Source: Nemertoderma westbladi | Taxonomy: Eukaryota; Animalia; Xenacoelomorpha | Direction of reading: 5' to 3' | Assembly (NCBI GenBank): GCA_032718475.1 | Contig: JAUCBJ010007504.1 | Coordinates: forward strand, 1 to 64,000 | Length of the DNA: 64,000 nt | Part shown: positions 1,786-64,000 of the stretch, in pieces | Layout: the number at the start of each line of letters is the position of its first letter | How positions within the stretch are numbered: the first letter of the stretch is position 1 | Notes under the pieces: model-generated | What the model saw: the letters and a program-made list of their open reading frames with translations, nothing else | Told to the model about the DNA's origin: nothing | The model's database searches: none | Position numbers and translations under genes: made by a program

Positions 1786-1894
1786 GTCTGTTAATCAGTA
1801 CAAATTATATTCATTTCCTTAACATTATTATTCTTGGGGTTTCAGGTTCGTAGAATCCATTTCGAGTGACATTTTTAACATTTGATGACTTCCA

Positions 1895-8570: not shown

Positions 8571-8718
8571 GCGTACCTATTATGTACTATTCTAAGACTT
8601 TCTCTTCTTATTTTTTTATTTTTATTTTTAATTGTGTGGGAAGGGCGTCTCGCCCTCAATCCCACCCCCCTCAGTCCAAAACTTGGACGACTAAACTCCT
8701 CTAAAAACCCACTCCAAC

Positions 8719-22939: not shown

Positions 22940-23665
22940 GGTGGTGGAAGAAATTTTAAAATAGTAATGGTGATGGATTTAAGTATAATAATCAAATTTG
23001 TCGGTATAATGATAATATTATAAATACAATAACCTTACTTCGCCGTAGCTCGCCCCACAACTCATTAATGGCGCCCATATGCTAAGGCTTCACTCGCTTC
23101 ATGGCTCGCCCCATTTTTTCAATGTTGGAAAGGAATGAAGGGGACGTCGGGTGATGGCGGTAGTGGTAATGATGTTGTGGGTGAGGAAGAACTCACTTCA
23201 CGGCTCGCCCCCATAAGTCTGTGTTTATTTACCTTTTTTAGTTGTTGCGTCATAACCTTACTTCGGCGCTATCACTCACACTTCGACGCTATCACTCACT
23301 TCATGGCTCGCCCCATAGGTAGAATAATCAAATCATGTTAAAGACTTTTATAATAACAAACGTCTGCAACCCACTTACTATATTGGGTTTTACCTATTGC
23401 GGTTCAAGGTCAAACGCCGACCGGTAGACACGAATTAATTAAATTACTTCCGCCTGCAAACTGGCCTTATACCGCGTATGTCACATATATACACAGCGGT
23501 GACATATGTTACATATGCACAATGGTAACCATGGTAACCATAGTAAGTGGGTGGGGCAACAATAGTAATCATAGTAAGTAGGCGGGGCAAGAGCCGTTCG
23601 GCAAATTCTTTAACATGGTAGACTATGGCAGACGCTGTCTCAATCACGTTGTTTAGCCTACTACT

Positions 23666-26444
23666 ACCGGCATATAAGATGGTAGTAAAAAACATGGGGG
23701 CCAAGTCGTCTTCATTTGCGATGACTATGGTAGTGAGAGACACAGTTAAGGGAAAAGAAGATAGATACAGCACTAGGGCCGTCGATATGATTCGACGTGG
23801 TTTCTACATAGACGACGGAATGGGGTCTGGAAATACGGTTAAGGAGATACTGGACACAGGGCGCGAGGTTCGCGACATCCTAAAAGGATCCGTCTTTAAT
23901 CTGACCAAATTCCAATCCAGTTCGGAAGAATTTATCAAGGCAATAGAAGACAAGAGGCCAGAATCGACCATGGATAATCCAACAACAGTCAAAGGGCAGG
24001 ACATGGCGAATAAGAGAACACAATCTCAACAGAAGGCATTGGGAATCGTGTGGGATAGAGAGACAGACAAATTGAAGTATCAGCTGAGCCAGGAGGGCGC
24101 AGACACCCATACAAAGAGGGGCTATGTATCGTATATAGCAAGGATATACGATCCCCTAGGCCTAGCATCCCCATTATTAGTCACGGGGAAACAGATACTC
24201 AAGAGAGTATACAAATTGAAGGATGAGTGGGACGTAGAGGTACCAGAGGAAATCAAGAAACAGTGGAACAAGTGGACAGGAGACTTGGAGAAGATGGAAA
24301 CATACGACATGCCACGTGTGTATTTCCCGGATGGGAACATGACGAATCTGGACTTACACATGTTCTCCGATGCGTCGCTGGAGGCGTACGGAGCGGCACT
24401 CTACTTAGTACAACGAGAGGTGGCTCAAAAGCCCAGACTAGCCTTTAGCAAAGCAAAGTCGATGCCGCCAGATTCAGCATCTGTTCCCAAGTTGGAATTA
24501 ACAGCTGCGAGACTAGGAGTTAGAGCCACAGCCTACCTAGTGGATACTATTCCCAACATAGTGGAGACACACTACTGAACGGACTCCATGGTAGTGCTTG
24601 GTTGGCTACATAACGAAAGGACAAGATACCCGATATTCGTCGCGAATAGAGTGGACGAAATAAGAGCGACCACAGAACTGGAAAGGTGGCACTACTGCCC
24701 AACAGACAAGAACCCAGCGGACTTGCTGTCGAGGGGCGTGGAACGCCACTCTTTCTTGAAGAAGGAAGTATTGTGGCAACATGGGCCACAATTTCTGAGC
24801 GATAAGGAGGCCTGGCCGCCGATGAGAAAGGTGGAGCCGGGCTCAGAAGTAGTGTCAGAGGGAGAAGAAGGAGATTCAGAGGGAGAAGAGATATACTCCC
24901 AGATGGTGAGGGAGATTAGGGACGTGCAACCAAAATGAGAACTGTGCGATAACCCGACGGATAAACTCCTCAGCTACAGTTCTAGTTGGTATAAGACCAC
25001 GAAACTAGTGGCGTACTGGAGAGCTTTCGGGGATTTCCTCGCGGGAGTTGGCAAGGACAAGAAGATCAGGACAACCATAGATCTGGAAGGAGCGGCCAAG
25101 GCAGTGATCCGCTATGAACAACGGAAGAACTACGGCGACGAGGTGGAACGCGTCGGTAACCAACAGCACCTCCGACGGGACAGCGAGCTGATTACGCTGT
25201 CGCCACAACTCAATGACGATGGGATTCTAGTAATGAATTCTAGGGTGGGATATAACAACAGCATAGTCGTACCACCGAAACCCATCATCATTCCCACAGG
25301 ATCGCCAATAGTCCACCAGATTATCTGGGACTCCCACAAATCAATTTTGCATGGGGGCACCAACCAAACCCTCACAGAGATAAGGAGGACCTATTGGGTC
25401 AAACAACTGAGAAAGAAGGTAAAAGCGGTAGTGGGGCAGTGCCAGACCTGCCGACGAGCGAAGAAGGAGCGAGCCGTACAGGAGATGGCACCACTACCAG
25501 CGAGTAGGGTAAGACAGCACGACCCGCCATTTACGCATTGCGGTGTGGACATGTTCGGGCCGATAAAGATCAAAGTGATGCGACACACGGAGAAACGCTA
25601 CGGCATTATCTTCGTATGCAACAACACACGGGCAGTGGGGATAGAACTCGCCCAAGATGCAACCGCATCAGCATTCATTAATGCCTTAGAAAGGTTTAGA
25701 GACCGCAAAGGTGGGACGATCGCAGTGATATACAGCAACAACGGCACCAACTTTGTGGGCGCAGAGAGTGAGATGGCGGAGGCCTTGGACATCTTGGAAG
25801 GGGAGGAAGTCAGGGCGGCCATGAGACGACGACAGGTGAAGTGGGAGAGAAGGACGCCGTATGCACCACATACACTAGGATGCGTCGAGAGACTGGTGGG
25901 CAGTTCAAAGCGTCTAATGACGAAGTTAATGAACACCCACATGGTCACGGAGGACATCTTGAGGACAGTGCTTGCAAAGTGTGAGGGCATCATTAATAGT
26001 AGACCGCTATATCCGGAGAATGATGACCCTGAGTCACTAGACGTGCTGATGCCTAGCCACTTTCTGATGGAAAGGCCAGCAACCATCGATATGCAGGGTG
26101 TAAACCCAGATGACATACACTCTCGCCAGAGTTGGAAAGTCGCTAAAGCAATAAACGCAGAGTATTGGAGGAGGTGGGTCGAGGAATACCTACCCACGCT
26201 CCATAAAAGGAGTAAGTGGAGGAAACAAAATAGGGAGTTAAGAGAGGGAGATCTCGTAATCGTTACGGATGATACTATCATCAACAACCAGTGGCGGTTG
26301 GCGAGAGTTGTAGGCACCTACTCCGACGAGGACGGAAGAGTCCGATCGGTAGAAGTGCGGATAGGTGGCAAGATAGGTGCGAAGGACAGAAAAACCTACA
26401 GGAGAGCTGTGGGAAAATGCTGTCTGTTAGAAGGGGCACCTTAG
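23666..26444 (+). pseudogene. Bel/Pao pol fragment (RT C-terminal half, RNase H, integrase)
   Basis: YIDD, FSDAS, PKLEL, VDMFGP and VERLV motifs; in-frame TGA stops at 24576 and 24936; integrase SDSG changed to SNNG. Confidence 0.92.
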
Positions 26445-26594
26445 TAGAGTTAGAGAAAAGTTTAGTCGTCCAAGTTTTGGACTGAGGGGGGTGGGATTGA
26501 GGGCGAGACGCCCTTCCCACACAAATAAAATAAAATAAAATAAAAATAATAGTACGTAGTAGGTACGCAGTTAATAGGCAGAAGGTAGAAGTTG

Positions 26595-27135
26595 TTAGAA
26601 GGTACGTAGTACCTAGAGTTAGTTAATTAGTTAGGAGGTACGTAGTACCGTTAGGTTAGAAGAGTTAGAGGGTACGTAAGTACTGATAGTTAGTTAGAGT
26701 TAGAGTTAGAGGGTACGTAAGTACTGATAGTTAGTTAGAGTTAGAGTTAGAGGGTACATAAGTACCGCTAGTTAGTTAGAGTTAGAGTTAGAGGGTACGT
26801 AAGTACCGCTAGTTAGTTAGAGTTAGAGTTAGAGGGTACGTAAGTACCGCTAGTTAGTTAGAGTTAGAGGGTACGTAAGTACCGCAAGTTAGTTAGAGTT
26901 AGAGTTAGAGGGTACGTAGTACCGTTAGTTAGAGAAGAGTTAGAGTTAGAGGGTACGTAGTACCGTTAGTTAGAGAAGAGTTAGAGTTAGAGGGTACGTA
27001 GTACCGTTAGTTAGAGGAGAGTTAGAGGGTACGTAAGTACCGCTAGTTAGTTAGAGGAGAGTTAGAGGGTACGTAAGTACCGCTAGTTAGTTAGAGAAGA
27101 GTTAGATGGTACGTAGTACCGTTAGTTAGAGAGAG
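26595..27135. repeat. Internal tandem repeat (~31-37-bp unit)
   Basis: GTTAGAGTTAGAGGGTACGTAAGTACCGCTAGTTA variants, ~14 copies; homologous to the reverse complement of 8010-8570. Confidence 0.92.
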
Positions 27136-27630
27136 AGAGAGTAGGAGGTAGAAGGGTATATAAGATATATATATTAGTTAGCAGTAAGTAGCGTTAGTAG
27201 CGAGAGGGGGGCATATGAGTACAGCTGGATAAATCTTGTGGCCACACGACGCATACTGCTGTACTACATAGGCCCACAGAGTAGGCCAGAATGTGGATTA
27301 GAGAATAGAATAATCCATAGGCAACAGTAAGTAGTAGGACAGTAGGATTGAAATCAAAATAGATAAATAAATAGAATGGAGCTGAAAGTTACAAAATAAC
27401 GGCAACACAAGGAAAGTTGTTCTAGAACATAATAAAAGTAACGGACGGAAATTGTAAATTAGGCTCATTTACTAGCTTCAAGATTAATTAGCAATAAATT
27501 TAGGTTAAAAGGCGCAGTTAAGTAGAAATAGGCCATTATCGAACCGTACAGAACATCCTAGATACATCACTCATCTGTATTGCGCCTTAGTAAGGCACCA
27601 CCTTGCAGGTGAGCGAGTGTAGTGTTTGGA

Positions 27631-30177
27631 ATGGCGAGCAAGCTGATCAGAAAGAGGAAAGCGGAGTCAGGAGGAAAGGAGATACTGGTGGATTTCACCG
27701 AGAGGCATCCGGAAGAGAAGACGAAAGGATACTACGAGAGGTTGGAAAGGGGTCACGCGGCACGAGCGCTGCAGGATCACTTCCGGGAGATGCACAAACA
27801 GCGGCTGGTCGGGACCTACGGGATGCCGTCGCTGGACAACGCGATCTCCCGACACTTCCACTACGTAGTGAAAGGGGACGAGGCGAAGTTCGGGATTCCG
27901 AAATACCCGAGGGAATCACCGAGGAAGGACTGGAAGAGATTCATAGAGTCCGTCAATAGGGGAGGATATATGATCCTAGATGACGAGGGAACCGTGGAAG
28001 ACGAGGAGGGTTCGAGACGAGGATCGGCGGGGTCGGCCAGGACCATACTCCTACATTTGGCCGCGCCAAATGGGGACATCTTCTTATTCGATCTAGGAAC
28101 GTATGGGAAGAAGGACGGCCCGAAATTAAACCGATTGCCGAAAGCGGTACAAGTCTTGGTAAGAGAGAAGTCGACGACGAAAGTAGGATCGGCGATTCGC
28201 GAGGATGCGGAGAGAATCATCGGTCCGGACGCCACCAACCTCCTGGATATGCAAAAGGTCTTTATGGCTATGATGGCACCGGATGGGTTGGGGGTAGTCG
28301 GAAACACAGGCCAATGCGGGGCGGTGGCTATGGGCCAACTATTGGGGCTCGTGTGTCACAAACCGATGGACTGGGGGAAGTTCAGGGAAGAATACGGAGC
28401 AGAACTAGCAAACTCGCTAAAGTGGAGAGCGAGACCGGGAAAACAAGAGGTATATCAATTCCGCAGAGGAGCGATAAAGGTATATCAGAAGCGATATATC
28501 CTTCAGGAGGATTGGATGATGATAAGTTTGCTCAACTTATTCATGACCGTGGTTATCGAGAGGGAACCAGCGGCATTTCTATTATCGGGATCACCCCTAA
28601 GCTACAGGAGAGCCTTTAAAGTGGCCTTCGACGGTCTGGTAGACCACCTGGGGCTGAAGGGCGAGTCGGTGTACTACGACAGCCGACATCTAGTAGACGG
28701 GGAGATAGATACGCCGTATCAGAGATGGGAGCAGTTAGAGACGGATAGACGAGAAACAAAGCGACTGGAAGAAGTCGCTAGACGAGAGAGGATAGAAGCA
28801 GAGGAGAGGGAAGAGGAGGCCAGGACACAGAGTTACGGCTTCAAGGAACAGGCAGGCTTAGACGAGCTTCGTTGGACTTCATCGGGGAGTTCGGGTGAGT
28901 CTCTAGGGCGAGAACTGGGATGGACGGTGGGTTCACCGAAACAGTCGACGTCGGGGTTGCAAGCGATGCCCATACCAGGGGGCGCCGAGGGCGACCAACC
29001 ACTAAGAAAGTTAGGGGAGCTAGAGGGATGGAGAGCCACGGGCGAGAGCCAAGGCGGGAAAGGACATAGTGGATCCATCGGGATACTGGGGTTGGAACCA
29101 CTGTGAGAGGAGGATGAGGACGACGACGAGTTCGGGGAGATGCCGCCCATCGAGAGGATAGGCCACTCGGACACGGACTGGGTTGGCGGGAGGGTGGTGA
29201 CGACCAGTGGGGCGAGAGCCTTCTGGGAAAAACCCGGCAAGCGGGCCTGGGTGCATGAGGAGCCGGTGATGGATTTCGCGGGGAGCACTATCAGGTTGGG
29301 CGAGCAACCGGGGACGGCACCACGGGTAGTATTCGGAGAGACGATGCCCGGGAGGGGCGAGGAGATCGACGTAAACAGGGACGCTAAAGTCCAGAAGTTT
29401 GCCTATCAGCGACTCCACAGACCGCGGAGATTGCTTGGGACAAAAGACGACGTGGGGCGGGAGACCTTGGTACTCGGTTGCGACTACTGTGGGAGACAGA
29501 CCCACCAGGAAAGGAGCTGCTTGTACCGGTTCCAAAAGGGAACCTTTTGTCTCTACTGCCGAGAGTCGAGCCACAGGATGGGGGCGTGTCCACGGTTGCA
29601 TAACCGATGTCCAAAGTGCAACTTTCAGGGACACTTCGGACGCCAGTGCGACTGGATGGACGACGAAGAGAAGTTCAGGATCTTCGAGGAATGGGCCGAC
29701 GTCGGGGCGAGGACCCGGCAACGCATGAAGGCCCAGGAGTTCAAGTGGGGCTTTTTCCTTATCAATCAGGAGGCTCACATGGAAATCATAAAGTGGAGGC
29801 TACCGTTTACCTATCAAGAGGTAGCAACGGCGGCGTCGTATGCCGGAGTGATGAACACACAAAGATACTTGGACAGATGGAGCCCACAGAATCGAGGGGA
29901 GTTTAGGGATTTCTTGGCGGAGCACGTGAAACGAGCAATGAAGATGATCCTATGGGACGCCACAAGGGGGAGACAACAGGGCCACTCGGAGGGGCCACCG
30001 GCGAAGCGGTATCGGGCACTAATAACACCAGCGCCCAAGGAGCCAACAACCGGAATCAGCAGGGAGGTGGCGGCGAAAGTCCGAAAGCAGAAAGCGGATC
30101 CCAGAGGGGCGGTGGTAACCAAGAAACGACCCAGGGAAGAGGACGCCAGGGGGAACTATCCCCAGAGGAACAGATAG
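27631..30177 (+). pseudogene. Accessory ORF: DEDDy exonuclease + 3 CCHC knuckles (~848 codons, one in-frame TGA at 29104)
   Basis: MASKLIRKRK start; ExoI D-x-E at 27979-27987, ExoII D at 28204, ExoIII YILQED at 28495-28512; knuckles 29479-29649; the 27622 and 29140 ORFs share one frame. Confidence 0.82.
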
Positions 30178-42946: not shown

Positions 42947-45900
42947 TGAAATGATTGTCTGGTTTAAGATCTTGCATATCGGTATTATATTTGAACTCAG
43001 TTCATAAGATATATAAGAGTACATATACTACTGTACTGCCGAAGCACTACTGCACTCAAATACCCCAACACCAGTATCTCGCTATGCCCTAAGCCTAATA
43101 CAGTCCTAGGCCCAACCTCAAGGGGCGAGCCATCTGAATTGGTGAGTCTCCTCCTTATCACCTAATTCCATCATCCCCCCATTAAGATCGATTGGTCCTT
43201 ATCAGATTGGAATCTAACGGTTTTAGTACGTGTTCGAGTTCCTCGTCTCAAGGCTGATTTGGGTGTTTCCGTAGGAGTTTCATCCCTTGTCTCTATGGAA
43301 TCACTGGAGCTTGGATATGGTCGCAGGAAGCGACGATTACGCCATAAGACTTTCCCGGATGGTAATTTCACGTGGTAATCTCTACTCATCTTTCCCCTTT
43401 CAAAAATAATCCCCTTCCTTGTCCATCTCTTAGAAACGGGATCCTGTATGAGTACGTGTGTTCCAGGTTCAAGCGGTTTTAATGTGTGTGCGGATCTGTC
43501 ATAATATTCTTTCTGTTTATTTGCCTTTATAAAGTCAGTATCTGCGGCCATCGTCAGCCAATTGGCAGAGAATGTTGAGTAATGAGCTGGAACTCGTGAA
43601 CGCAACGGATGTCCATACAGTATGATAGCGGGAGAACGTCCGTCGATGTGTGGGGTATTTCTTAATTCTAAAAGGCCATGAAGGAATGAATCCGTATGTA
43701 AGTTTCCGCCATCTGTTTTTGCAACCAAATTTTTTAATATGCGGACATTGACCTCAGCGTGTCCGTTGGATTGGGCGTATGTTGGAGATGATGGTATCCA
43801 TTCTACTCCCCAAGTTTTAAGGAAATCTGAAAATATCTTGGAACTGTATTGGGGTCCTCCATCTGAGCGGAGTCGAACTGGTACTCCCGTTTGGACGAAA
43901 TAACCTTTGATTTCTTTCAAAACCTGTTGGGAGGTTGGAGTATAATTCCAATGAGATATGAATGGAAATCCTGAGTAGCGGTCTACATAGACTAAGTAAG
44001 TGTGTGTTCCAAGTGAGAATAGGTCTGTTGAAACAGATTCGAATACGCGTGTTGGCATAGGATCGCTTATTAGCGGTTCCTTAGGGTTGCTTGGCAACCG
44101 AAGTTGACACTTATCACATGATTGTACAGCCATTGTGAGGTCGTTCGTTATACCCGGCCAGTACACACACTGTCTGGCGCGCATTTTCGTCCTTTCAATA
44201 CCCTGATGTGAGTCATGGAGTCTATTGATAACATTTTTGCGTAGGTCAAAGGGTATCACTAGACGGCGCCCGAACAACACAAGACCGTTGTCAGTGGTCA
44301 GGTCATTTTTTAATTTGTCAAACATTTTGACAAATTGGCAATTTGCGTGAGGCCCCTCAAAGCCTGTCTCAATTGATTTTATTAGTAATTGATAATTATA
44401 GTCTAATTTAGCCGCGACTTTTATGTCTTCTATTACAGGATCAGGGAAATGGTGAGTTTCACCTGAATTCGTTCCTGCTATCATTATTGTAACGGCATTC
44501 AGTATAATATTAGCGGTCATGTACCCAGTCGTAGTGTTAATTTCAGTTTCGGGGTCATCGACCGGTGCTCTGGATAAGGCATCAGGTATTTTATTATCTG
44601 AACCTTTCCGCCATTTAACAACAAAATTGTAGCTGCTGAGCTTCATTTTGTGATTGAGTAAGCGCACATTATCTATCGTGTCTAATGTTTGTTTGTTGTA
44701 AATGGACACTAAAGGACTGTGATCGGTAATTACTGTATACAATGCTAGGCCGGTAAGATAGATGCGACACTTCTGAGTTGCCCAGAGTATTGCAAGGGAC
44801 TCTAGCTCTACCATAGCATATCTAGACTCCGCGTCTGATAAAAAACGCGAGCCGCATTGAATTAGTTTAAAACATTCGTCTTGTTTCTGTAACAAGGCAT
44901 ATCCTAGGCCACCTTTACGTGCCGCATCTACTTCTAAAACAATTTCGGCCTTGGGGTCAAAATTGGATAAAATTGGCGTAGATGATAAAGCAATTTTCAT
45001 ATTGTCAAATGCTTTCTGGTGGTTTGGTGTCCACAAAAATTGATTTTTTGTTTTCAGTATATCTCTCAAAGGACTAGCTATTAAACTTATTTCGGCCGAA
45101 AAGTGGCCCAACTGTTGTACTAAACCCATAAAGGATCGAAGTTCGGTTCTATTGGTAGGTGTAGGGAATTGACTAATCCCTTTTACCTTCACTGGGTCTG
45201 CTTTTATTCCCTCTTGCGACACTATATAACCTGCAAAATTCATTTCACTTTGGGCGAATTTGAATTTTTTTTGGTTTATAGTGATATTATATTTCATGCA
45301 ACGTTCTAAAACGTTACAAACATTTCGGACGTGGTCCTGAAAGTTGACATTATAAATTATAATGTCATCTACGATTTTCTGGATATTGTCTAAACCTTCC
45401 AGAGCGGTGTCACCCCTGAGACTATAAATATCTCCGGTTGAGATAAAACCCATGGGAGCCCTAACGTACATGTATCTTCCCCAAGGAGTAATAAAACATG
45501 TCAGTTTTTGTGACTCTATAGCTAATGGCATTTGCCAATATCCTGATTTTGCATCAAGTTTAGTAAACCAATTGCAACCAGGTGGGATACTCGAAACACA
45601 ATCGTTTGGTGTTTTGGTAGGGTATACTACTCGCTCTACTTGTCTATTTAAGTTGGATAGGTCTACACAAATTCTAATCCCGCCATCAGGTTTATTGGCT
45701 ATAACCATAGGATGGCACCACTCGGTAGGTTTATCGCCTGCTGGTTTGATAATGTTCCATTTAATTAAATTATCTATTTCAGCTTTTACTTGGTCTCGCT
45801 GTGCAAATGGAATAGGGCGTGCTCCGTGCACTGCGTACGGTATTGCGTCCTTTTTAAGGTATATTGTCATAGGCTTACCTACATCTGTACCGGACATTTG

Positions 45901-48210
45901 TTTCAGTTCAGTATTATTGAAAAATACGTCTGAATATATGTCCGAGAGTTTATTATGAACTCTCTCAATTTCGCATTTGTTAGGAGAAATAGGCAATTGG
46001 TTAATCCATTTTTCTCTTGCGTCATGTTTAAAAGTTTCACTTACGTTTAATTTAACGTCGTCAAGTGATCGAATTATTTCCTTCTTTTGGTTAATATTCG
46101 ATCCAACTTGATCATTAGGGACAGAGGTATTGGTAACATGTATAGGTAAGTTACACTGGCAAAAGGCAGCTGCATTGGCAAAAAGTGGCGGTGGGTTCGG
46201 AAAATGTTTAGAAACTATATCTAATGCCTTACAAACAGATAGTGATAAATATAAACGCGGAATGCCGTCACATATTTTCACACTTTCTATTACAGACCGA
46301 CCACTAATTTTGAGACAGACCTTTATCTGGCCCAATTGTTTAATAACTTTGCCATTTATACTGACTAACCGTTCTATAGACGGTTTCTGGAGGTCTGTTT
46401 CGTTTAAATTTAATGACCTCAAGAATGTCATGTTTGCAACTGTGCGTTGGGACCCGGTATCAGGTACTGCCTGACTATAACCAAATAATTTATCCGTTTC
46501 GGGATGGCATATCCCTACGGAAATGAGTGGCGGGTCCTCGAAATCGACCGTCGCTACTCGAACAGCTGCTTGTTCTACAGCTCCTAGGGATTTATTACGA
46601 CATACGTTAGCGAAATGGTTAAGTTTATGGCACGCGCTACACTTTTCCCCTTTCGCTGGACACCTTTTAAAGTTAGTGTGACTATATCCACATTTGGTAC
46701 AAGGTTTCTTATCCTGATTTCCGGAATTCCGTTCCGGGGATGGAGACCGGTTTCTCCCGGAGCTCGTAGATCTTCCGGAAAAATATTTATTTTTCCGATA
46801 TTGATTCGAAGAGGATCCTGACTTTGAAGTCGCTCCCGCCAAACTAGTGTTCTTGTAAGGACCGTGGGCTAGGACTTTCTTAACTTTGTCCTTGTGTATT
46901 CGCGCCGCTTCTTCGGTCCGACAAAATTTAATAGTCGCCTCATGGTTTAAAGGCGGTGATTTCGCCAGGAGATCCTGTCTGATTTCGTCGTTTTGAATTC
47001 CAACGGTGATCAATGTCGACATCCATTCGTCGTCTCCCATCTCTTGTAACGCTGCAGTGTTGGCCAATTCGCTCAAACGAGTATAAAAGTCGTCGAACTT
47101 TTCCATCTCGTGTTGTCGGCACAACGTAAGTTCTAATCTGTCGAGGGCTATATTCTGTTTTTCGCGCAGATATATTTCCAAGTTGTTTAGGACTTCATCA
47201 AGGGATAGGGATGTGGTTTGGGGAATCCGTACGACATATTCAAGTTTCGATAAGAATGCCGGCGAACAGTATCCGAAAAATGCAGATACCTGCTCGTCTC
47301 TCGGCTGTCGGGATAGTTGAACAACTTTCGCGTAGTTATTCCAGGTCTTTCTCCATCTCTGGAACATCGTTATATCGACATCTTCTTCGAGATTGGGAGG
47401 TCGGTTTACGGGTGCTCGAGGTGCATTGTCCGTTTTACTTGGTGCTGGTGGGAATCCTCCGGTACCGGAAGCAGTCGTCCTACTTCCTTCATTCATAGAT
47501 CTACAGTCTTCCTGGTTTTGTGCAATCGCCATCTTGACGTCAGACTTTATTTGTAATAATTCGGTAGTGCATTGGTCATAATGGGTATACTCGTCAGTGA
47601 GATCCAACTGAGTTTCATCCATCGCCATTAAGGATTCACCAAGATGGTCATATGCAACTTCCAGTTTTAAGAGCTGTTTTTCCAGGTCGTTAACCAACAG
47701 AGGGTGGCGATTTACCGGATCGATGCGGTTTAAATCGCGAATACTTGATATACACAAATTTACGGCCCGAGTGAAACTTCCCTTGAAACCACCGAGTTTC
47801 CGCTTTAGGTGTTTCATCCCCTCGAGGTCCATAATTGAATTCCTCACAGTTGTTCCTTCCCTATTGCAGTAGGGGCCTATTGGATTTACTGTTTGGTCGG
47901 TTATCGTTTCTGGTGGGTTTGTAGGTATCGGTACCGGTATGTTATCCCGGAACGACCGAACTGCTATCCTACTCGCAGCGCCATGAAATGATTGTCTGGT
48001 TTAAGATCTTGCATATCGGTATTATATTTGAACTCAGTTCATAAGATATATAAGAGTACATATACTACTGTACTGCCGAAGCACTACTGCACTCAAATAC
48101 CCCAACACCAGTATCTCGCTATGCCCTAAGCCTAATACAGTCCTAGGCCCAACCTCAAGGGGCGAGCCATCTGAATTGGTGAGTCTCCTCCTTATCACCT
48201 AATTCCATCA
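42947..48210 (-). mobile_element. Full-length Ty3/Gypsy (Mag-like) LTR retrotransposon
   Basis: Two 227-bp LTRs (42947-43173, 47984-48210) identical by eye; 5-bp TSD CCTTC; PBS TGGCGCTGCGAGTAGGAT (tRNA-Ser-like) at 47966-47983; PPT at 43174-43180. Confidence 0.96.
43171..47832 (-). CDS. Gag-Pol polyprotein (single uninterrupted ORF)
   Basis: Mag-type knuckles CTKCGYSH..RCPA..KCSACHKLNHFANVC; protease PDTGS; RT LDAKSGYWQ and IVDD; RNase H VDAA, ELE, TDH; integrase HHCC, TDLF, SDGGPQY, NGHAE. Confidence 0.95.
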   Translation of the reverse strand: MDLEGMKHLKRKLGGFKGSFTRAVNLCISSIRDLNRIDPVNRHPLLVNDLEKQLLKLEVAYDHLGESLMAMDETQLDLTDEYTHYDQCTTELLQIKSDVKMAIAQNQEDCRSMNEGSRTTASGTGGFPPAPSKTDNAPRAPVNRPPNLEEDVDITMFQRWRKTWNNYAKVVQLSRQPRDEQVSAFFGYCSPAFLSKLEYVVRIPQTTSLSLDEVLNNLEIYLREKQNIALDRLELTLCRQHEMEKFDDFYTRLSELANTAALQEMGDDEWMSTLITVGIQNDEIRQDLLAKSPPLNHEATIKFCRTEEAARIHKDKVKKVLAHGPYKNTSLAGATSKSGSSSNQYRKNKYFSGRSTSSGRNRSPSPERNSGNQDKKPCTKCGYSHTNFKRCPAKGEKCSACHKLNHFANVCRNKSLGAVEQAAVRVATVDFEDPPLISVGICHPETDKLFGYSQAVPDTGSQRTVANMTFLRSLNLNETDLQKPSIERLVSINGKVIKQLGQIKVCLKISGRSVIESVKICDGIPRLYLSLSVCKALDIVSKHFPNPPPLFANAAAFCQCNLPIHVTNTSVPNDQVGSNINQKKEIIRSLDDVKLNVSETFKHDAREKWINQLPISPNKCEIERVHNKLSDIYSDVFFNNTELKQMSGTDVGKPMTIYLKKDAIPYAVHGARPIPFAQRDQVKAEIDNLIKWNIIKPAGDKPTEWCHPMVIANKPDGGIRICVDLSNLNRQVERVVYPTKTPNDCVSSIPPGCNWFTKLDAKSGYWQMPLAIESQKLTCFITPWGRYMYVRAPMGFISTGDIYSLRGDTALEGLDNIQKIVDDIIIYNVNFQDHVRNVCNVLERCMKYNITINQKKFKFAQSEMNFAGYIVSQEGIKADPVKVKGISQFPTPTNRTELRSFMGLVQQLGHFSAEISLIASPLRDILKTKNQFLWTPNHQKAFDNMKIALSSTPILSNFDPKAEIVLEVDAARKGGLGYALLQKQDECFKLIQCGSRFLSDAESRYAMVELESLAILWATQKCRIYLTGLALYTVITDHSPLVSIYNKQTLDTIDNVRLLNHKMKLSSYNFVVKWRKGSDNKIPDALSRAPVDDPETEINTTTGYMTANIILNAVTIMIAGTNSGETHHFPDPVIEDIKVAAKLDYNYQLLIKSIETGFEGPHANCQFVKMFDKLKNDLTTDNGLVLFGRRLVIPFDLRKNVINRLHDSHQGIERTKMRARQCVYWPGITNDLTMAVQSCDKCQLRLPSNPKEPLISDPMPTRVFESVSTDLFSLGTHTYLVYVDRYSGFPFISHWNYTPTSQQVLKEIKGYFVQTGVPVRLRSDGGPQYSSKIFSDFLKTWGVEWIPSSPTYAQSNGHAEVNVRILKNLVAKTDGGNLHTDSFLHGLLELRNTPHIDGRSPAIILYGHPLRSRVPAHYSTFSANWLTMAADTDFIKANKQKEYYDRSAHTLKPLEPGTHVLIQDPVSKRWTRKGIIFERGKMSRDYHVKLPSGKVLWRNRRFLRPYPSSSDSIETRDETPTETPKSALRRGTRTRTKTVRFQSDKDQSILMGG

Positions 48211-56189: not shown

Positions 56190-56810
56190 ATCTAGAATAA
56201 ATAATGCGTCTTAATTTGTTAAATTTTGCTCAAAAATACACTAAAATCGGGAGAAAAATTTTCACTTTTTTCCCTAAAGAAAAAATTGAATAAGGATTGC
56301 ATTGATTTTACTTTTTCCCGGTGAAAAAAGTAATATAACATATTTTTGGTGGAATTTCTTAAATTTTATTACATGTGTTTAAAGAGCATGGAAGTAGAAA
56401 AGGTTTGCACGTTAAGTTATTACAGCTTTAGTGTCTGCAAGACGAACTCCAAAACGGAACTCAGTATCCAATGTTGGTTTTATCTAGTTAAGCAGCTCTC
56501 TAGTTAGGTAATAAATATTCGAGAACACTAAATTATTTAACATTGAGTAAGGCAGCATTAGGAGTTGAAAAATACAATAATTTGACTCACAGAAACTATG
56601 GCAGCAATATAGTATAGTACTATATAGTTCAATTTATTTTGTTCATATATTCATATATCGCTCTATATAAAAGCAATGCTATCCTATGGGTTACTTTTTC
56701 GTTAGGGAAAAAAGTACTCCCCTTTCTCCCAATTTTGGGGTATATTCGAGCGAAAAAGTAACAATTTACGAAGATGCCATGCTTTCCTGTTACAAGTTTA
56801 TTCTAGAATA
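56190..56810. repeat. Old imperfect inverted repeat (degenerate MITE?)
   Basis: CTAGAATAAA...GGGAGAAA...TTTTCCCTAA at ~56190-56280 is mirrored at ~56700-56810. Confidence 0.45.
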
Positions 56811-56948: not shown

Positions 56949-59900
56949 TCACTTTCTTGAGGAATGTTTCTGTTTATTCAGATTATATAGTGCTAGAATA
57001 ATGCACTCGATCAGACGCTTCTGTAACGGCCAATACTTAAATTGGTGACACATATCACTAATACATTCGTCATTAATCGCAATATTTGAAAATTCTTCTC
57101 CATTCGTGAGTAGCTGGAATGAGTGACTTACTTTCGATTCCAATGATTTATATCCATGGACTTTCACTGTTAATTCAGGAAGTATTTCCCAGCATTCATG
57201 CAAAAAGGTGTTACTAGTACTTGAAGAACCCATCATGTTCCACATGTTTGCCAATCCATTGAAAGTTTTATAAAACACATCCTTTGAGGTTTCAGGAGGC
57301 TTGAATAACTGAACCATATCTTTAGCGAGAAATCGTTGCCATATATTAGCAGGATGAAGGTTTCGACATAAAATAAGCGAAAACTTTGACTTTCGTAGAT
57401 GCAAACTCTCAGAACTTTCACAGGAATGAATTTGGTGGATAAAATTCGTAGGAAATATTTCCAACCAGGTCGATACCCGCTTCTCAAGTGGTACCTCCTT
57501 GGCAAAATTTTGAGCACTCATATCAGTAATATCACCGTGTGTGAGCTGAATATATGGAGTGTCAAATAGAAGCACCCGTTCTATTAATGTTGGGCTAGCA
57601 GGCCTCCAGTTTAAAATTGAGACGATAGTCCATTTTGGGCCAGGTGCAAGAACTGTCAATCTGACATCACCAAGTTGGAACAATGTCAGCTGCCGATGTA
57701 CTTCAACAATATGGGCAGAGTCACTATGACGCGTATCTGGAACTAGAATTGAATAAAGTCCATGAAGCATGGCATCTCCTATATCGTCAAACTTACTGAT
57801 ATTGGCTTCTTTATACCAGTTAATAACATTTAATGACACATTAAGTTCATTGGAAAACTTCATAGAGTTCCCTGACATCAATGATTTTGCAAGTTTAGAT
57901 GTCTGCTGTTTGCGCATTAGTCGGTCCTTCCTCCTAGCAGCTTCTGCTTCCTTCTCCGTATTGAATTTATCAGCGTAATTTGGCCTCCGAACAAAGAGAT
58001 TGAGGGCAAGTCCTTTGACAATCTTTGGCAAATGCGCTAAAGGTCCTCTTGATGCATGGAGTAAAAATCCCGCACTGTGATGTACACGAAGTGAATTATT
58101 AGCAAGTCTAAATGGAGATTGAGTGTCAAGGAACTTCCTGAGACCATCGACTAATCTCTTCGTTATCCATTTCAGTTCAGCATTATCTGGAAACTGTTCT
58201 ATCGAAATCGATAACACATCACATACTGGTAAAGAGTTTTCTTCCAGTTGATTACATGTTAAGGCTGTTAATAGACGGCAGTCTGAATTAAACAGGATCT
58301 CAATAAGAGTTGAGTCTGAGGTATGTTTATAAACTTGATGTATGAGATTCACTTTTGCACAAAAGACAAGTTCCGGAGATGACTTTGTTTTGCTGTGCCA
58401 GATTGCAATTCCCATATTAACTGTACCTGGATCGATGCCGACAGACCTGATTGATTTCAGATTTAGATTTTGGTTAATATTGTTGTCTAGTTGGCGGGAA
58501 TAAATGGGTATAGTCAATATCGCTTCTCCCATTCCAAAGCGTTTAGTAAAAGCTTTGCTGTTTTCAATTAAGACAAGCTCTTCACGGTTCCTTTTTAAAT
58601 CCATTTTCGATGTTCCAAGCTTCAAAAAAGTTTCTTGAGAAAAGGGTTCAGGATATAGATTGCTACAGCCATCAGCGCGCGTGAAGGATACTTGGACAAG
58701 CTGGCTCAGCATACTCAAATTGCTTCGGGCGAGTTCATCAGCATTCAAATTGATATACACTGGACGACCTGGATATTCCTTACTTTGAGATTTATGCACC
58801 GTGATGGCATGATTCGGAACGAAAGGAAATTGTGTCCGTGTGATCTTTTCCGCATATCTTCTGCGACGTTTGCCAGTGAGCCTGCTAGACATGGGGAAAA
58901 TTCGAACCCATGTAGGATGATCCGGAAAATCGGACTCCAAGCCATCCTCAATATCATATGATGGTATATCTACAACGACATGGTTAGGTTGTGGATGCTC
59001 ACCGCGCATAACAGCATCACAGTCTGATCTTCCGTACACTATTTTCTTAATAGTCCCAGTGCCACCATTGATAATTCTTTTTTTGACACTAATGTTGTCT
59101 ACAAATAGTACATCCAACCCAATATATAATGGAATGCAGTGTTCAACCATTATATCAAAATCTGATGGTGAAATCTTCTCCACATTAGCAAGGTTATGAT
59201 TATAGTTGGCAATTGATAAGAATAACGGAACATTGTGGAAGCAAATCTCATCTACACAAGCTCGCGCATTTCTAAACATTCTTGTACTATTATCATACAG
59301 TAGTGATACAGGTTCAATTCCTAAATTATGTCGCGTGGGGTGGGTACCCAGTGTGTTCATTGCCTTAAAAACTTCACAATAGTCTGTTAATGTTTGATCT
59401 CCTGTGCGTATTCGCCCCGCAATACTAGCTAGTTGGCTATCGGATCGATACACATTATTCAAACATATGACATTTGGTCGTATCTCCGTTTGGTAAAGTT
59501 TATGGCCTAAATGAGATGGTGCCTTAGCTCTGGCTCCTCGACTAGGAGGAGTTGTATCCAACAGGTTCGGTGGCGAATCCCAAAGTGCGCGGGATAACAC
59601 TGGTGGGAGTTGGCCAATGTCACCAACAAACATCGCTTTTTTGCCACCCCACAGCTGACCATACTTTCCTGTCGCATGTTGTAAAGAACTGTCCAACAGT
59701 GCTAAGGTTACTGGTGATGCCATTGAAATTTCATCTACAATGACTACTTTAACATCTTGTAGGAACTCTTTGATTTGGGTCTGTCGATTGGATATTTTGC
59801 TAGGATTGTTGTCCCATAAAGTTTTACCATTATAGATACCATAAAAACCCTCTAAGGTGGAGCAATGGAGGTTTGCAGCTGCCACTCCACTAATACCATG

Positions 59901-62900
59901 AAGTAAAACCTTTGATTCACCCAGTATATGATATATCCGTTTTATGACTTCAGTCTTACCTGATCCACCGGGCCCATGTAAGAAGAGCGTTTTCACGGAA
60001 GGCACACCATTAACCTCATCATTACACATCAAATCGACAGCAAGCTGTTGATATGGATCCAAAATACGTAATCCACCTTCATCACGAGAAGGACCGCCCA
60101 TAAATGTCTTTGAAGAATTTTGCAATTCCTTCCATGATGATAATACTGCAGAATACTCTGTGGAATTAATATCTATTGAATCAAAGGAAGATATAGGTCT
60201 ACAGGGAATTTCATCAATGCATGTGCGTAATATATTTTCAGGCTCTATATAGGAATCACAATCAAAATCATTGCTGAGCAATTTACTCAATGAAATCTTC
60301 TCTATTTCTAAGTTTTCTAATGTTGGATCCTGAAGAGCACCACTAGTATCACCTTCATCACAACCATAAGATTCATGTTCTATTTCTAGAGGGACGCAGT
60401 TGAATTGAGATTTTATCTTTGTAATATACTTTGAATGTTCACTCTCCGATTTGAAGGTATTTTGGAAGACCCGAAAACGAAAACAAGGATCATTACATTT
60501 GACTGATATCTGAAATTCTTCGGTTTGATTTAATGTTGACCTGCTGCGCTCAGATAGGTTCTGCATCCACATCTCGTAAAACCTTTGGTATGCCATTATT
60601 ACATCCTTCCTTCCAGATTTGATATCATCCTGTAGAATCTCATCAATAAATATGCTTAAAGAAGTAAAAGGAAAAAACGCAATACATTCTAGCCGCAGGT
60701 TCTGTAGTGCACGCTTGTCATCAGAATTTAGAGAACTCCATGTCGATCCTTGCAAAGCATTTAATTTTTCAGGACGATCTGAAAACTGTTGGGGCACAAT
60801 GTGTGGAACTCTAGGAAAATTTGAATTAACTCTCTTGTATATAAAAATGTCATCTTTCTTATTATATGAACAATTTACTGTTCGGAGGAAATCGAAGTAA
60901 CTCATACTTTCAGGTGACTCTAAAGTTGATGACCAATTCACATTAGAATTTGTTCTATTTAAATAAAATTTCAAATTTGACTTAGCTGGTACAATGAATA
61001 TGTTTGTAACTTTGTAAATATCGGCGTTGTTGGTCTCTAAATTACTGCTATCTTCAGTGTCGGATATTCTATCGCAAATTATTGTTTCGATAGTATTTGT
61101 ATCTCGAGTTATACTTGCTACAATTGGTGATGTTTGACTGCACTTCAATGGCAGTATGCGAGGCATGCATGATATAGTGTCTGGGAGATCAAGAGAATGG
61201 AATAACAGCTCCCTTCTAGTCATGTCCTTGGGATTAAATATATGTGCAATAGTTAATCGGCGAACAATGCTCTGTATGGTTATATCAGGTTCGCTCTCAA
61301 CCAGTTGCATGAGTTTTACAACTGCAGCATCAACTGATGATGATAGTGATGTCGACTTGGCAGCATATTTAACTGCATATCTTATAACGGAAAAAGGGCA
61401 ACTGATTACTGTTAAATCGGTGTTAGCCCGCCAGTATTGTTGAAGGATGGGGTTAATATTATTTAGTCTAGCAAATGACTTATGTTCTCTCTTCGTTAAA
61501 ACATGACATTCCGTAAATTCCATTGTTGCAGTTACTTTTGAAAATCCAATTTTTGTAGAGTCCCGCCGTGGCTTCATTCCTCCATGGCGACAACCATCTC
61601 CACTGGAATTACCTCCACAAGTTTCTTGGTGGCAGTCATGGATTTGTGCTAATGCAGCTTGATGAGATCTATCTTTCCATTCGGGGTTACACAAGTCTTG
61701 ATGGTTAATGGGATCTCGCATCAGAGGGTGATTATATGGAGTATATTGATCTTTTGGGGGAAGTTTGCGCCATTCCTTTAAAATCTGCCTGAGATCTACT
61801 AGAGTTTCGTTTTCATCTGCAAAATTAGTAGTTATTAAACTATCATATAGATTTGTCAAATAGACCTCAGCTAATGTACCAACGTGTAATATTCTAGTTG
61901 CCTTATTTCTGAAGCTCTCTTTCATTTTCCCTTCTGCCCACCATTTCTTCACAGTTCGTGCACGATGAATAAGATGAGATAACAAGATTGGTTCGTATAC
62001 ATGATTGAGGCGAAGAAGAAAGTGCCAATGCTGCACACCACGGGAAGGTCCCCATTCAACGCGGCCCCAATACCATCCAGAAGTAGCATCGACATCACAG
62101 ACACGCTGAAAAAAGGCCTTTGCCATGATCTTCATCTTCATGTGAAGGTACTGTTCCACAATAGCTGCATGCTTATTTAAAAGATTGTTCCACTCTGTTC
62201 TATTTATAATGAACCAATCTGATGAGAACTGATCATTGTTACCATTATTCTCACATAAGAATATGAGTCGCCTAACTCCATAATCTGTTCTCAGATTATT
62301 ATTAAATGTCACGAAGACATTCGGAAATCCAGATGTCATGCATAACGATTGTAATTGCATGCGTATAGATTTCCATCGCTCACAGGAGTGTGGGTATCGT
62401 CGCAAATGGGCGACTAGTAGTGGTGCAACCGACTCGGGATGTCCACGATTGAAAGCCAAAAGAAGATCATTGATTCTAATATTCTCAATCTCAGCCTCAC
62501 TATGCAAATAGAATCTTATACCATCCATTGCCGTAGTAAGATTAAGTTGATCGTAAACTACGAAAGAATAAATATCATCTTCGGCATAAGGCCATCTAAA
62601 TCGGCCATCATTTTCCTTTACAGCATATTTAAGCTGGTGACTCAACGTTTTCTTAAGTATATCCAAATGTGTGCGATGTGATTTACCATTGTCATCCTCA
62701 GTGAACAGAATATCAGTGATAGAGGTTTGTTTATCACCATGTAGATCTGGAAATTGATCCTGAATGCGCCAGTTGTGTGAGGACACTTTATTCTCCCACA
62801 TTGAAGTGACATCAATGTGTTGCGGATTTCCAGATAATTGCGACTCCACAGCTTGCCGAATTCCAGTTTGAATATACCCACTCAGACTCTCATTGGTACG

Positions 62901-64000
62901 GAATAGGTTATGAGCAGTGCTATCAGATTGTGCATACATGTCATCCTGCACTTCCCGCACAGTGCAAACTATGTCTTCATCTTCAAGAGTCAATGGTTCT
63001 GTACATACACGATTAAACTCTTCCACTAAATGTAGCAACTCCTCATCAGATACAACATGAGTGTAACAACTTCTTTGATTGACGAGATGATGAACCCATA
63101 ATTTAACAACATTACTCCGCACTTTCATTCTCTTGATGATTTTATCTTTATCATCTTTTGCAACAACTACAACGTGACTGGAAAATTCTGTATGTGGAAT
63201 AACATTTTCCAGTGTTTGCTTTAAGTTATGGCTTACTACTATGCTATGACAACCAAAACGCGGGCCTCCTGCAAAGTCAAATTTTACGCTGGTGAAAGCT
63301 TGCTGCTTGGAAATCATACACCGCTCAGCTGGTGAACATTTTGGTAAGTGACCAATGTTTGATTGATATTCAGCAGGAACCATTGTTGTAGATAAGGCAA
63401 TATCTCGGTGATCTGGTTTCTGAGTTTTCCTTTTCATCCTTGACTTACATGTTGAACATTGATTATTGGTATATTCCTTGGAAGGTCGAACTGTAATTTC
63501 GTGGCAAACTTCGCATTGCTTTAAGCACCAATCTGTACTCCATTGCCTTACAGCATCCCCCATTACATATTTTACAAAAGCCGAATCCTGCCTCTGAATT
63601 ATCTGAGCTTGATTCCGTTGATCCTTTTCAAGAAATTCAAGATGTTTTCGAATGCGCTGATCCCAGGGCCACAAGGGTATCTGCATTTTTTTAGAATCAT
63701 CCTTACAGCGCGCTAATTCAATCTGGAAATTCTCTACCTCTACTGGATTAGCATCTACATTACACATTTCAAGCTCTATGTCAGTATCAACTGATTTAAC
63801 TCCCCAGTTATCTAAAGTACATTTTAACAAACTTAGTTCTTTATCAAGTTCCAAATAGAAGGGACATGATGTACAAAATTTAGTTCTCTCTTCCCATGAA
63901 GCTGGACCCTTTGCAGACTCTGTTCCATTATTTTGTCTTTGTCTTTGACTTTGCTTCGAGTGTCGATCAGTAGTTCGTTTTTTTTCCCGCACTGTTTGAG
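56949..64000 (-). CDS. Helitron/Helentron-type Rep-Pif1 helicase fused to a RuvC/A22-like resolvase; N-terminus probably beyond window
   Basis: Rep motifs VFVTF (~62310), EWGPSRGVQHWH (~62020-62060), YAVKY (~61370); SF1B helicase GPGGSGKT (~59960), IVDEISM, GDIGQLPPV, VYR, AITVHKSQ, VSFTR; C-terminal IDPG / IEQ / RK / KFDDIGD; frame is open to the window edge. Confidence 0.9.
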   Translation of the reverse strand, partial: QTVREKKRTTDRHSKQSQRQRQNNGTESAKGPASWEERTKFCTSCPFYLELDKELSLLKCTLDNWGVKSVDTDIELEMCNVDANPVEVENFQIELARCKDDSKKMQIPLWPWDQRIRKHLEFLEKDQRNQAQIIQRQDSAFVKYVMGDAVRQWSTDWCLKQCEVCHEITVRPSKEYTNNQCSTCKSRMKRKTQKPDHRDIALSTTMVPAEYQSNIGHLPKCSPAERCMISKQQAFTSVKFDFAGGPRFGCHSIVVSHNLKQTLENVIPHTEFSSHVVVVAKDDKDKIIKRMKVRSNVVKLWVHHLVNQRSCYTHVVSDEELLHLVEEFNRVCTEPLTLEDEDIVCTVREVQDDMYAQSDSTAHNLFRTNESLSGYIQTGIRQAVESQLSGNPQHIDVTSMWENKVSSHNWRIQDQFPDLHGDKQTSITDILFTEDDNGKSHRTHLDILKKTLSHQLKYAVKENDGRFRWPYAEDDIYSFVVYDQLNLTTAMDGIRFYLHSEAEIENIRINDLLLAFNRGHPESVAPLLVAHLRRYPHSCERWKSIRMQLQSLCMTSGFPNVFVTFNNNLRTDYGVRRLIFLCENNGNNDQFSSDWFIINRTEWNNLLNKHAAIVEQYLHMKMKIMAKAFFQRVCDVDATSGWYWGRVEWGPSRGVQHWHFLLRLNHVYEPILLSHLIHRARTVKKWWAEGKMKESFRNKATRILHVGTLAEVYLTNLYDSLITTNFADENETLVDLRQILKEWRKLPPKDQYTPYNHPLMRDPINHQDLCNPEWKDRSHQAALAQIHDCHQETCGGNSSGDGCRHGGMKPRRDSTKIGFSKVTATMEFTECHVLTKREHKSFARLNNINPILQQYWRANTDLTVISCPFSVIRYAVKYAAKSTSLSSSVDAAVVKLMQLVESEPDITIQSIVRRLTIAHIFNPKDMTRRELLFHSLDLPDTISCMPRILPLKCSQTSPIVASITRDTNTIETIICDRISDTEDSSNLETNNADIYKVTNIFIVPAKSNLKFYLNRTNSNVNWSSTLESPESMSYFDFLRTVNCSYNKKDDIFIYKRVNSNFPRVPHIVPQQFSDRPEKLNALQGSTWSSLNSDDKRALQNLRLECIAFFPFTSLSIFIDEILQDDIKSGRKDVIMAYQRFYEMWMQNLSERSRSTLNQTEEFQISVKCNDPCFRFRVFQNTFKSESEHSKYITKIKSQFNCVPLEIEHESYGCDEGDTSGALQDPTLENLEIEKISLSKLLSNDFDCDSYIEPENILRTCIDEIPCRPISSFDSIDINSTEYSAVLSSWKELQNSSKTFMGGPSRDEGGLRILDPYQQLAVDLMCNDEVNGVPSVKTLFLHGPGGSGKTEVIKRIYHILGESKVLLHGISGVAAANLHCSTLEGFYGIYNGKTLWDNNPSKISNRQTQIKEFLQDVKVVIVDEISMASPVTLALLDSSLQHATGKYGQLWGGKKAMFVGDIGQLPPVLSRALWDSPPNLLDTTPPSRGARAKAPSHLGHKLYQTEIRPNVICLNNVYRSDSQLASIAGRIRTGDQTLTDYCEVFKAMNTLGTHPTRHNLGIEPVSLLYDNSTRMFRNARACVDEICFHNVPLFLSIANYNHNLANVEKISPSDFDIMVEHCIPLYIGLDVLFVDNISVKKRIINGGTGTIKKIVYGRSDCDAVMRGEHPQPNHVVVDIPSYDIEDGLESDFPDHPTWVRIFPMSSRLTGKRRRRYAEKITRTQFPFVPNHAITVHKSQSKEYPGRPVYINLNADELARSNLSMLSQLVQVSFTRADGCSNLYPEPFSQETFLKLGTSKMDLKRNREELVLIENSKAFTKRFGMGEAILTIPIYSRQLDNNINQNLNLKSIRSVGIDPGTVNMGIAIWHSKTKSSPELVFCAKVNLIHQVYKHTSDSTLIEILFNSDCRLLTALTCNQLEENSLPVCDVLSISIEQFPDNAELKWITKRLVDGLRKFLDTQSPFRLANNSLRVHHSAGFLLHASRGPLAHLPKIVKGLALNLFVRRPNYADKFNTEKEAEAARRKDRLMRKQQTSKLAKSLMSGNSMKFSNELNVSLNVINWYKEANISKFDDIGDAMLHGLYSILVPDTRHSDSAHIVEVHRQLTLFQLGDVRLTVLAPGPKWTIVSILNWRPASPTLIERVLLFDTPYIQLTHGDITDMSAQNFAKEVPLEKRVSTWLEIFPTNFIHQIHSCESSESLHLRKSKFSLILCRNLHPANIWQRFLAKDMVQLFKPPETSKDVFYKTFNGLANMWNMMGSSSTSNTFLHECWEILPELTVKVHGYKSLESKVSHSFQLLTNGEEFSNIAINDECISDMCHQFKYWPLQKRLIECIILALYNLNKQKHSSRK

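Follow-up and report, generated by a model that had tools for sequence, protein, structure and literature searches.

On the minus strand of the window, by which we mean the whole analysed stretch of 64,000 nucleotides of Nemertoderma westbladi DNA, there is one ORF that runs for at least 2349 codons without a stop, with its 5' end open at the window edge and its first ATG at 63767, which bears out the uninterrupted frame of more than 2300 residues given in a preliminary description of this DNA. Along the ORF the domains follow one another in the order DUF6570, two-tyrosine HUH Rep, PIF1 helicase, a RuvC-fold domain that we call RuvC-1, and a second RuvC-fold domain that we call RuvC-2 (Table 1). 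The preliminary description had placed a resolvase at 57745-58455; its quoted motifs are all found on the minus strand and within this one ORF, but the strand was left unstated there and the frame starts at 58454 rather than 58455, so that the minus-strand reading of 57745-58455 is out of frame, while that of 56952-58550 is in frame. Nor does the resolvase come directly after helicase motif VI, as was claimed, since about 75 residues lie between them, and the interval given there, by ending at 57745, leaves out about 250 further residues, which make up RuvC-2. It is noted that the A22-like motif pattern with the same spacing turned up once when the ORF was shuffled 5000 times, a figure that serves as a rough guide only because the pattern was composed post hoc.

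Table 1. Positions in the window of the transposase ORF, its domains and motifs, and of the short-read contigs that cross the helicase/nuclease junction; residues of RuvC-1 are numbered from 58454.
Feature	Position	Strand	Basis
Rep-helicase-RuvC-RuvC transposase, single stop-free ORF	56949..63998	-	38% identity to P0002 over 1797 columns
DUF6570 domain	63033..63350	-	Pfam E 7.7e-5, 23.6 bits; cut-off 24.3
HUH Rep domain	61365..62471	-	Pfam Helitron_like_N E 2.7e-8
Rep motif 1	62315-62295	-	motif position
Rep HUH motif	62033-62022	-	motif position
Rep two-tyrosine motif	61379-61365	-	motif position
PIF1-family SF1 helicase	58674..59999	-	Pfam PIF1 E 4.8e-15
Helicase Walker A	59975-59952	-	motif position
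Helicase Walker B	59735-59724	-	motif position
Helicase motif VI (VSFTRA)	58691-58674	-	motif position
RuvC-1, RuvC/A22/Ydc2-like domain	57732..58454	-	predicted model, ESM Atlas, conserved columns
IRSVGIDPG	58451-58425	-	motif position
RuvC-1 predicted catalytic D8	58433-58431	-	numbered from 58454
SIEQFP	58205-58188	-	motif position
RuvC-1 predicted catalytic E86	58199-58197	-	numbered from 58454
RKQQTS	57914-57897	-	motif position
KFDDIGDAMLHGL	57794-57756	-	motif position
RuvC-1 predicted catalytic D224	57785-57783	-	numbered from 58454
RuvC-1 predicted catalytic D227	57776-57774	-	numbered from 58454
RuvC-2, second RuvC-fold domain without catalytic motifs	56961..57689	-	model, motif columns, dN/dS
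Junction-crossing contig X1	56739-59418		
Junction-crossing contig X2	56741-59256		
Junction-crossing contig X3	56739-59861		

The part of this architecture ahead of the RuvC domains, with the HUH Rep upstream of the PIF1 helicase in one ORF, is that of a Helitron-like element (HLE). The HUH, two-tyrosine and helicase motifs are intact and both Rep tyrosines are present. The nearest other Rep-helicase matches carry APE, OTU or DUF6570, and the core of the window is 23-27% identical to the nearest APE-bearing and other Rep-helicases; it is noted that a word search for Rep-helicases failed to recover the known P0002. DUF6570 is a reported marker of HLE2 (PMC11417382), and it is found in the window at 0.7 bit below the Pfam cut-off, above the cut-off in the relative L004 (32.7 bits), and in L001 with E 4e-4. 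A Helentron in the strict sense would have an APE at the C-terminus; by contrast, no Pfam match to Exo_endo_phos (AP endonuclease) is found in the window, P0002, L001 or L004, and the whole C-terminus is modelled as two RuvC folds. Rep motif 2 of the window has one extra residue. The same extra residue is seen in P0012, the nearest relative without RuvC domains, which ends soon after the helicase with no recognised nuclease domain and is a candidate sister lineage.

The junction between the helicase and the nuclease is bridged by single short-read contigs from three runs, two samples and two studies, with 1-4 differences, one of the two samples possibly being the window's own source; a further run with the same species label (X5) gives almost no cover of the ORF and is uninformative. 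The fusion of helicase and RuvC is not an assembly chimera, and chance read-through or a chimera, which had been named as one way in which the proposal could fail, is ruled out by these bridging contigs from two studies together with the recurrence of the fusion in relatives.

The last 500 residues of the ORF have no match in a Pfam scan. An AlphaFold model of the C-terminal region built from 7 sequences has a pLDDT of 73 and a pTM of 0.49, the single-sequence prediction giving a pLDDT of 34 and no usable model. In the predicted model RuvC-1 (residues 2-240) has a RuvC-clade RNase H-like fold, which matches the fowlpox resolvase 6p7b with Z 12.0 and rmsd 3.0 over 147 of 148 residues, TEFM with Z 11.9, Ydc2 with 11.1 and the canarypox resolvase with 10.7, the top three (fowlpox resolvase, TEFM and Ydc2) being tied. 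Terminase nucleases match with Z 10.4-11.2 overall (10.6-10.9 for those of herpesviruses) and bacterial RuvC with Z 8.1-8.8. Among viral models searched with Foldseek a terminase is the best match, with the resolvases of medusavirus (E 1.3e-5), Tetraselmis virus and pithovirus among the top matches, and in the ESM Atlas residues 1-252 lie nearest to Pox_A22/Ydc2 clusters of Nucleocytoviricota, with a score of 0.93. The RuvC/A22-like fold put forward in the preliminary description is therefore what the AlphaFold model, Foldseek and the ESM Atlas agree on, as a prediction. At the level of sequence, the similarity is faint: neither Pox_A22 (PF04848) nor Ydc2-catalyt (PF09159) is matched in Pfam at E<=1 by the window domain or at E<=0.5 by five relatives, a search of PDB sequences with C-terminal profiles gave nothing significant, and the window domain has a weak match to a RuvC-like PHROG (E 0.001).

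The predicted active site of RuvC-1 comprises four catalytic acids in the order D, E, D, D, of which D8 and E86 are conserved in all 7 sequences that span them and D224 and D227 in all 8; the earlier statement that every expected acidic residue is present holds in each relative covering the sites. RuvC-1 also has N13, K182 and K221. In the fowlpox resolvase the active site is formed by D7, E60, D132 and D135, with N12, Q62, R101 and K129 nearby (PMC6962361). By motif order and spacing, D8/E86/D224/D227 correspond to these four fowlpox acids and N13/K182/K221 to N12, R101/K102 and K129. Taking the fold, the active site and the Rep-helicase core together, we hold with high confidence that a RuvC-fold nuclease is fused here to a Helitron transposase.

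RuvC-2 forms the last ~245-250 residues of the ORF. In the AlphaFold model it has the same order of strands and helices as RuvC-1, and its best fold match (model residues 256-498) is TEFM, with Z 10.3-10.5; the mutual orientation of the two domains is not fixed, because the pTM is only 0.49 and the linker between them (residues ~240-260) has low model confidence. The catalytic residues are gone: of the 9 sequences covering these sites, none has the first-strand Asp and all carry Arg or Lys where the fourth-strand Glu would be, and there is no DDxxD, the helix keeping at most one acid, near its last position. A profile comparison aligns RuvC-1 and RuvC-2 end to end but weakly (E 0.007, probability 5%), RuvC-2 has no match in Pfam, PHROG or the ESM Atlas, and the RuvC-2 domains of L001, L002 and L004 are only 12% identical to that of the window.

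The same fusion occurs elsewhere. In P0002 the helicase and both RuvC domains lie in one ORF whose homology to the window spans from the Rep to the C-terminus. When the C-terminal 501 residues were used as a HMMER query there were 6 matches, 5 of them relatives (P0003-P0007), which come from contigs of 1.1-2.0 kb, P0004 starting within the stretch that in P0002 comes after helicase motif VI. One further candidate, P0008, is a repeat protein with no relation to these and was set aside. Of 492 pattern matches in a metagenome scan, 4 were confirmed (L001-L004), and in three of these a single ORF contains both the helicase and the C-terminal region, namely L001 (3006 aa), L004 (~3040 aa) and the cut-off L002, L003 being frameshifted by decay or sequencing error. 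Thus four more ORFs, those of P0002, L001, L002 and L004, join the helicase to both RuvC domains, as had been anticipated for a genuine Rep-helicase/resolvase fusion; their RuvC-1 domains are 23-43% identical to that of the window, the range over all the relatives being 23-47%. L001 and L004 additionally carry C2H2 fingers and an OTU-like N-terminus, and in these features, as in the tandem repeats downstream of L004, they are like Helentrons and HLE2 elements. No relative was found in the scans of IMG/VR, and a search for longer fusions with alignment A5, limited to 985-2810 residues, gave no score to any of its 6257 candidates; since even P0002 escaped it, this search carries little weight.

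For the pair L002/L004, the dN/dS is 0.16 in the helicase, 0.17 (CI 0.09-0.29) in RuvC-1 and 0.09 (CI 0.04-0.18) in RuvC-2, these values describing that one pair of relatives rather than the copy in the window; L001/L004 was left out because its synonymous sites are saturated, and one further comparison because it was out of frame. To judge from these substitutions, both RuvC domains are under purifying selection in this pair, and because of its value of 0.09 the degenerate RuvC-2 is taken to be maintained. In a tree of 8 Rep-helicase cores, unrooted and having neither an HLE1 member nor an outgroup, the four RuvC-bearing cores form a group of their own (support 100), apart from the other four, which are the nearest Rep-helicases without RuvC and of which three carry APE. 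The earlier proposal of a new rolling-circle lineage is upheld to the extent that the RuvC-bearing sequences form one clade among the sampled Rep-helicases, in an unrooted tree of 8 sequences.

Concerning mobility, L002 and L004, which come from one dataset, are 94% identical, and a ~503-bp tandem repeat lies directly downstream of the ORF (L004:9963-11822, 3.7 copies; L002:4150-5234), the two sharing it at ~90%. Within the window the segment 59227-61023 of the ORF is assembled in X2 and X3 at a depth ~2-4 times that of the remaining ORF, a depth that does not equate to copy number, with 15-18 differences and 7-10 gaps, which suggests that the window's organism has other copies, partial or decayed. 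The near-identical copies with their shared repeat, the broken L003 and this variant segment point indirectly to a mobile family, and the window copy is presumably mobile too; no empty site was seen. HLE2 elements are characterised by short asymmetric terminal inverted repeats, a stem-loop at the 3' end and insertion at TT. The 5' end of the window's element lies beyond the window edge; the ends of L001, L002 and L004 were sought and not fixed, and in the 3' flank of the window ORF there is no clear terminal hairpin, a high-copy inverted-repeat element lying there instead. This element (56209-56772) is MITE-like: its inverted ends, ~104 bp long, are 74% identical, and there are palindromes inside it; it lies 177 bp past the stop codon, and many of its other copies end at 56772. 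It was considered as the 3' end of the transposon itself or as a non-autonomous partner, but its inverted ends, and the fact that its flanks vary at 56772, seem more in keeping with an independent insertion. Note also that L004:1-40 (minus strand) resembles the 3' terminus, hairpin plus CTAG, that canonical non-autonomous Helitrons have; it probably belongs to another element.

We propose that the ORF encodes the transposase of an HLE2-type Helitron, likely an autonomous one, in which the tandem active and inactive RuvC folds would act as a pseudo-dimer that nicks one strand of branched DNA, a reading that draws on the predicted model and that we consider moderately probable. In the proposed pathway, the Rep would nick the element end and the PIF1 helicase would strip off one strand, as in Helraiser; the strand peeling, or strand invasion at the target, would then give a fork, flap or loop, structures of the kind expected to arise during Helraiser-type transfer. 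The active and the dead RuvC copy in one chain would present a dimer surface with one active site, giving one cut. A RuvC-type nick leaves a 3'-OH, to which the element could be joined by its tyrosine-linked 5' end; alternatively, the nick could free a branch that has stalled. A single-nick pair is proposed because RuvC-family enzymes bind branches as dimers, and an intramolecular active/inactive pair is preferred to the symmetric two-site resolution implied in the preliminary description because a catalytically degenerate second RuvC fold is present. Helraiser reportedly transposes without a RuvC-type domain and both Rep tyrosines are intact in the window, so that by analogy the RuvC nuclease may be an accessory. 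The pox resolvase is described as dimeric and as binding not only junctions but also Y-DNA, bulges and loops (PMC6962361), and in Helraiser cleavage is described as tyrosine-dependent, with only the plus strand cut and moved through a tyrosine-linked intermediate (PMC5876387). The RuvC pair occupies the position of the APE in Helentrons, where the APE has been proposed as the maker of the initiating nick (PMC4067079).

It could instead be supposed that RuvC-1 works as a conventional resolvase, two transposase molecules pairing their RuvC-1 domains and cutting four-way junctions or cruciforms symmetrically so that concatemers or circle multimers are reduced to units, with RuvC-2 as a DNA-binding domain or spacer. 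The A22-type active site is complete, as this supposition would have it; on the other hand, it leaves unexplained RuvC-2, which is under selection at least as strong as RuvC-1, and an HUH domain can itself resolve the multimers of rolling-circle replication. Helitrons have been reported in tandem arrays and with head-to-tail junctions (PMC5876387), and mriyaviruses have separate genes for an HUH endonuclease, a helicase and an A22-like resolvase (PMC11253617), both of which would suit such an activity, but the Helraiser transposase is reported as a monomer, and on balance we consider this explanation unlikely.

We regard as still less probable that the nuclease is a functional swap for the APE, nicking unbranched duplex with some sequence preference, for instance for T-rich tracts. 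Its position is the same as that of the APE in P0009-P0011 and in Helentrons, and terminase nucleases, which cut duplex DNA, are close to it in fold by the Z values given above. However, the N at D+5, the RK helix and KxxDDxxD make up the motif set of the pox/Ydc2 branch cutters, and no target site is definable. A precedent for a different nuclease exists in the GIY-YIG domain of another HLE2 family (PMC11417382).

A non-catalytic clamp that grips DNA for the helicase in the manner of the processivity factor TEFM, or a domesticated and immobile host gene, seems to us very improbable. TEFM uses the RuvC fold without nuclease activity and is tied best for RuvC-1 and best for RuvC-2, and the C-terminal part is found in the window's organism as long low-depth contigs, unlike the repeats around it; yet the four acids are invariant among relatives that are 23-47% identical, there are no introns, L002 and L004, two 94%-identical copies from one dataset, have the downstream repeat in common, L003 carries disrupting frameshifts, and variant copies in the window's organism contain a 1.8-kb internal part of the ORF. 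Finally, that the locus is a fragment of an endogenous, mriyavirus-like rolling-circle DNA virus rather than a transposon is scarcely credible, for although the clusters nearest to RuvC-1 are viral and HUH, helicase and RuvC genes are present in mriyaviruses (PMC11253617), the core consists of Helitron_like_N, PIF1 and DUF6570, no other long ORF flanks the gene in L001, in L004 or, on the downstream side, in the window, and the IMG/VR scans gave no relative.

The proposed single-chain nickase can be placed among known systems. With Helentrons and HLE2 it shares DUF6570, HUH Rep and PIF1 in one ORF with a C-terminal nuclease (PMC4067079, PMC11417382); Helentrons have an APE in the C-terminal slot, whereas the window has two RuvC-fold domains and no APE, and its core groups apart. 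The HLE2 family HelenSM92 has also captured a nuclease, but one of GIY-YIG rather than RNase H/RuvC type, with no tandem active/inactive pair described in the accessible text (PMC11417382). The pox A22/NCLDV resolvases (PF04848; 6p7b, 5e6f) and Ydc2 (PF09159; 1kcf) have the same fold (Z 10.7-12.0) and the same four catalytic acids, around which the N, R/K and K residues also recur; they are stand-alone homodimers of ~150-240 residues, whereas the window domain, 13-18% identical to them and missed by Pfam, is fused to a transposase and followed by a degenerate copy. TEFM (5ol8, 8u8v) shares the RuvC fold at 6-12% identity but is a host mitochondrial transcription factor. The nuclease of Fanzor is likewise of RuvC type, and the C4 finger motif of Fanzor/TnpB is absent from the C-terminal 501 residues of the ORF, which have no Pfam match either. 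Fanzor1 is carried by Helitron2 as a separate RNA-guided protein, recognised as a separate ORF by a C-terminal D...TS...C4 zinc finger...RD, unlike the contiguous, A22-like and Rep-helicase-fused domain of the window (PMC3627910). Mriyaviruses also combine an HUH endonuclease, a helicase and an A22-like resolvase in one replicon, but as separate genes, with SF3/SF2 helicases and a capsid (PMC11253617).

As to the origin of the nuclease, a RuvC-1 profile matches viral segments with E 6e-6 and probability 85%, a comparison that is partly circular as the segments were motif-selected, and single-sequence scores against 63 such segments (120 loci) reach at most 14 bits. Sequence similarity is too low for a tree of the RuvC domain with the viral enzymes. 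The study of mriyaviruses calls RuvC trees unreliable (PMC11253617). Judged from these similarities, capture of an A22-like gene from a virus is plausible. We tentatively entertain, as possible rather than probable, the fuller history that an old and hitherto undescribed Helitron lineage of animals took an A22-like resolvase from a large DNA virus, duplicated it and inactivated one copy, giving a single-chain nickase of branched DNA and the third independent fold, with APE and GIY-YIG, in the C-terminal slot. If this is true, HLE2 integration would depend on a nick directed to a branch and made by something other than the HUH domain.

The earlier remark that no Rep-helicase/resolvase fusion has been described agrees with our search of the literature, from which Repbase, Dfam, subscription journals and bioRxiv supplements were outside: by title and the start of the abstract, none of the papers listed in full-text searches describes a Helitron with a resolvase, and no such fusion appears in the accessible text of PMC6431247, PMC13085455, PMC5148889, PMC3627910 or PMC3985635. 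The accessible parts of the HELIANO paper and its supplement mention one GIY-YIG family and no resolvase, RuvC, Pox_A22 or Ydc2 (PMC11417382). RuvC-1 is invisible to Pfam in the window and in all five relatives scanned, and its absence from HELIANO's Pfam-based survey of 404 genomes would be because the domain escapes Pfam. The RuvC-bearing Helitron transposase is real, conserved and apparently undescribed. How Helitrons open the target and complete integration is unsettled, and a transposase with its own putative branch-cutting nuclease, whose predicted catalytic residues are clearly assigned, makes this step testable in one protein. Moreover, RuvC-family resolvases are known as symmetric homodimers, and a single-chain active/inactive version would be a new route from resolvase to nickase.

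The remainder of the window holds several other features. At 358-1794 (+) there is a long ORF with RING and TRAF-type zinc-finger motifs, which to us resembles an exon of a TRAF6-like gene. Two related elements in opposite orientation, 4937-14577 (-) and 23625-30177 (+), are presumably BEL/Pao-like LTR retrotransposons; behind each comes an uncharacterised ORF, the two being similar (4937-7165 and 27631-30177). Between these copies sits a group of three ORFs, 19746-20378 (-), 21014-22306 (+) and 18505-19389 (+), one of which we take to be dUTPase-like, the other two being uncharacterised; the group could be the remnant of a DNA virus or a large transposon. At 43171-47832 (-) lies an intact-looking ORF of 1553 aa, presumably a Gypsy-type gag-pol.
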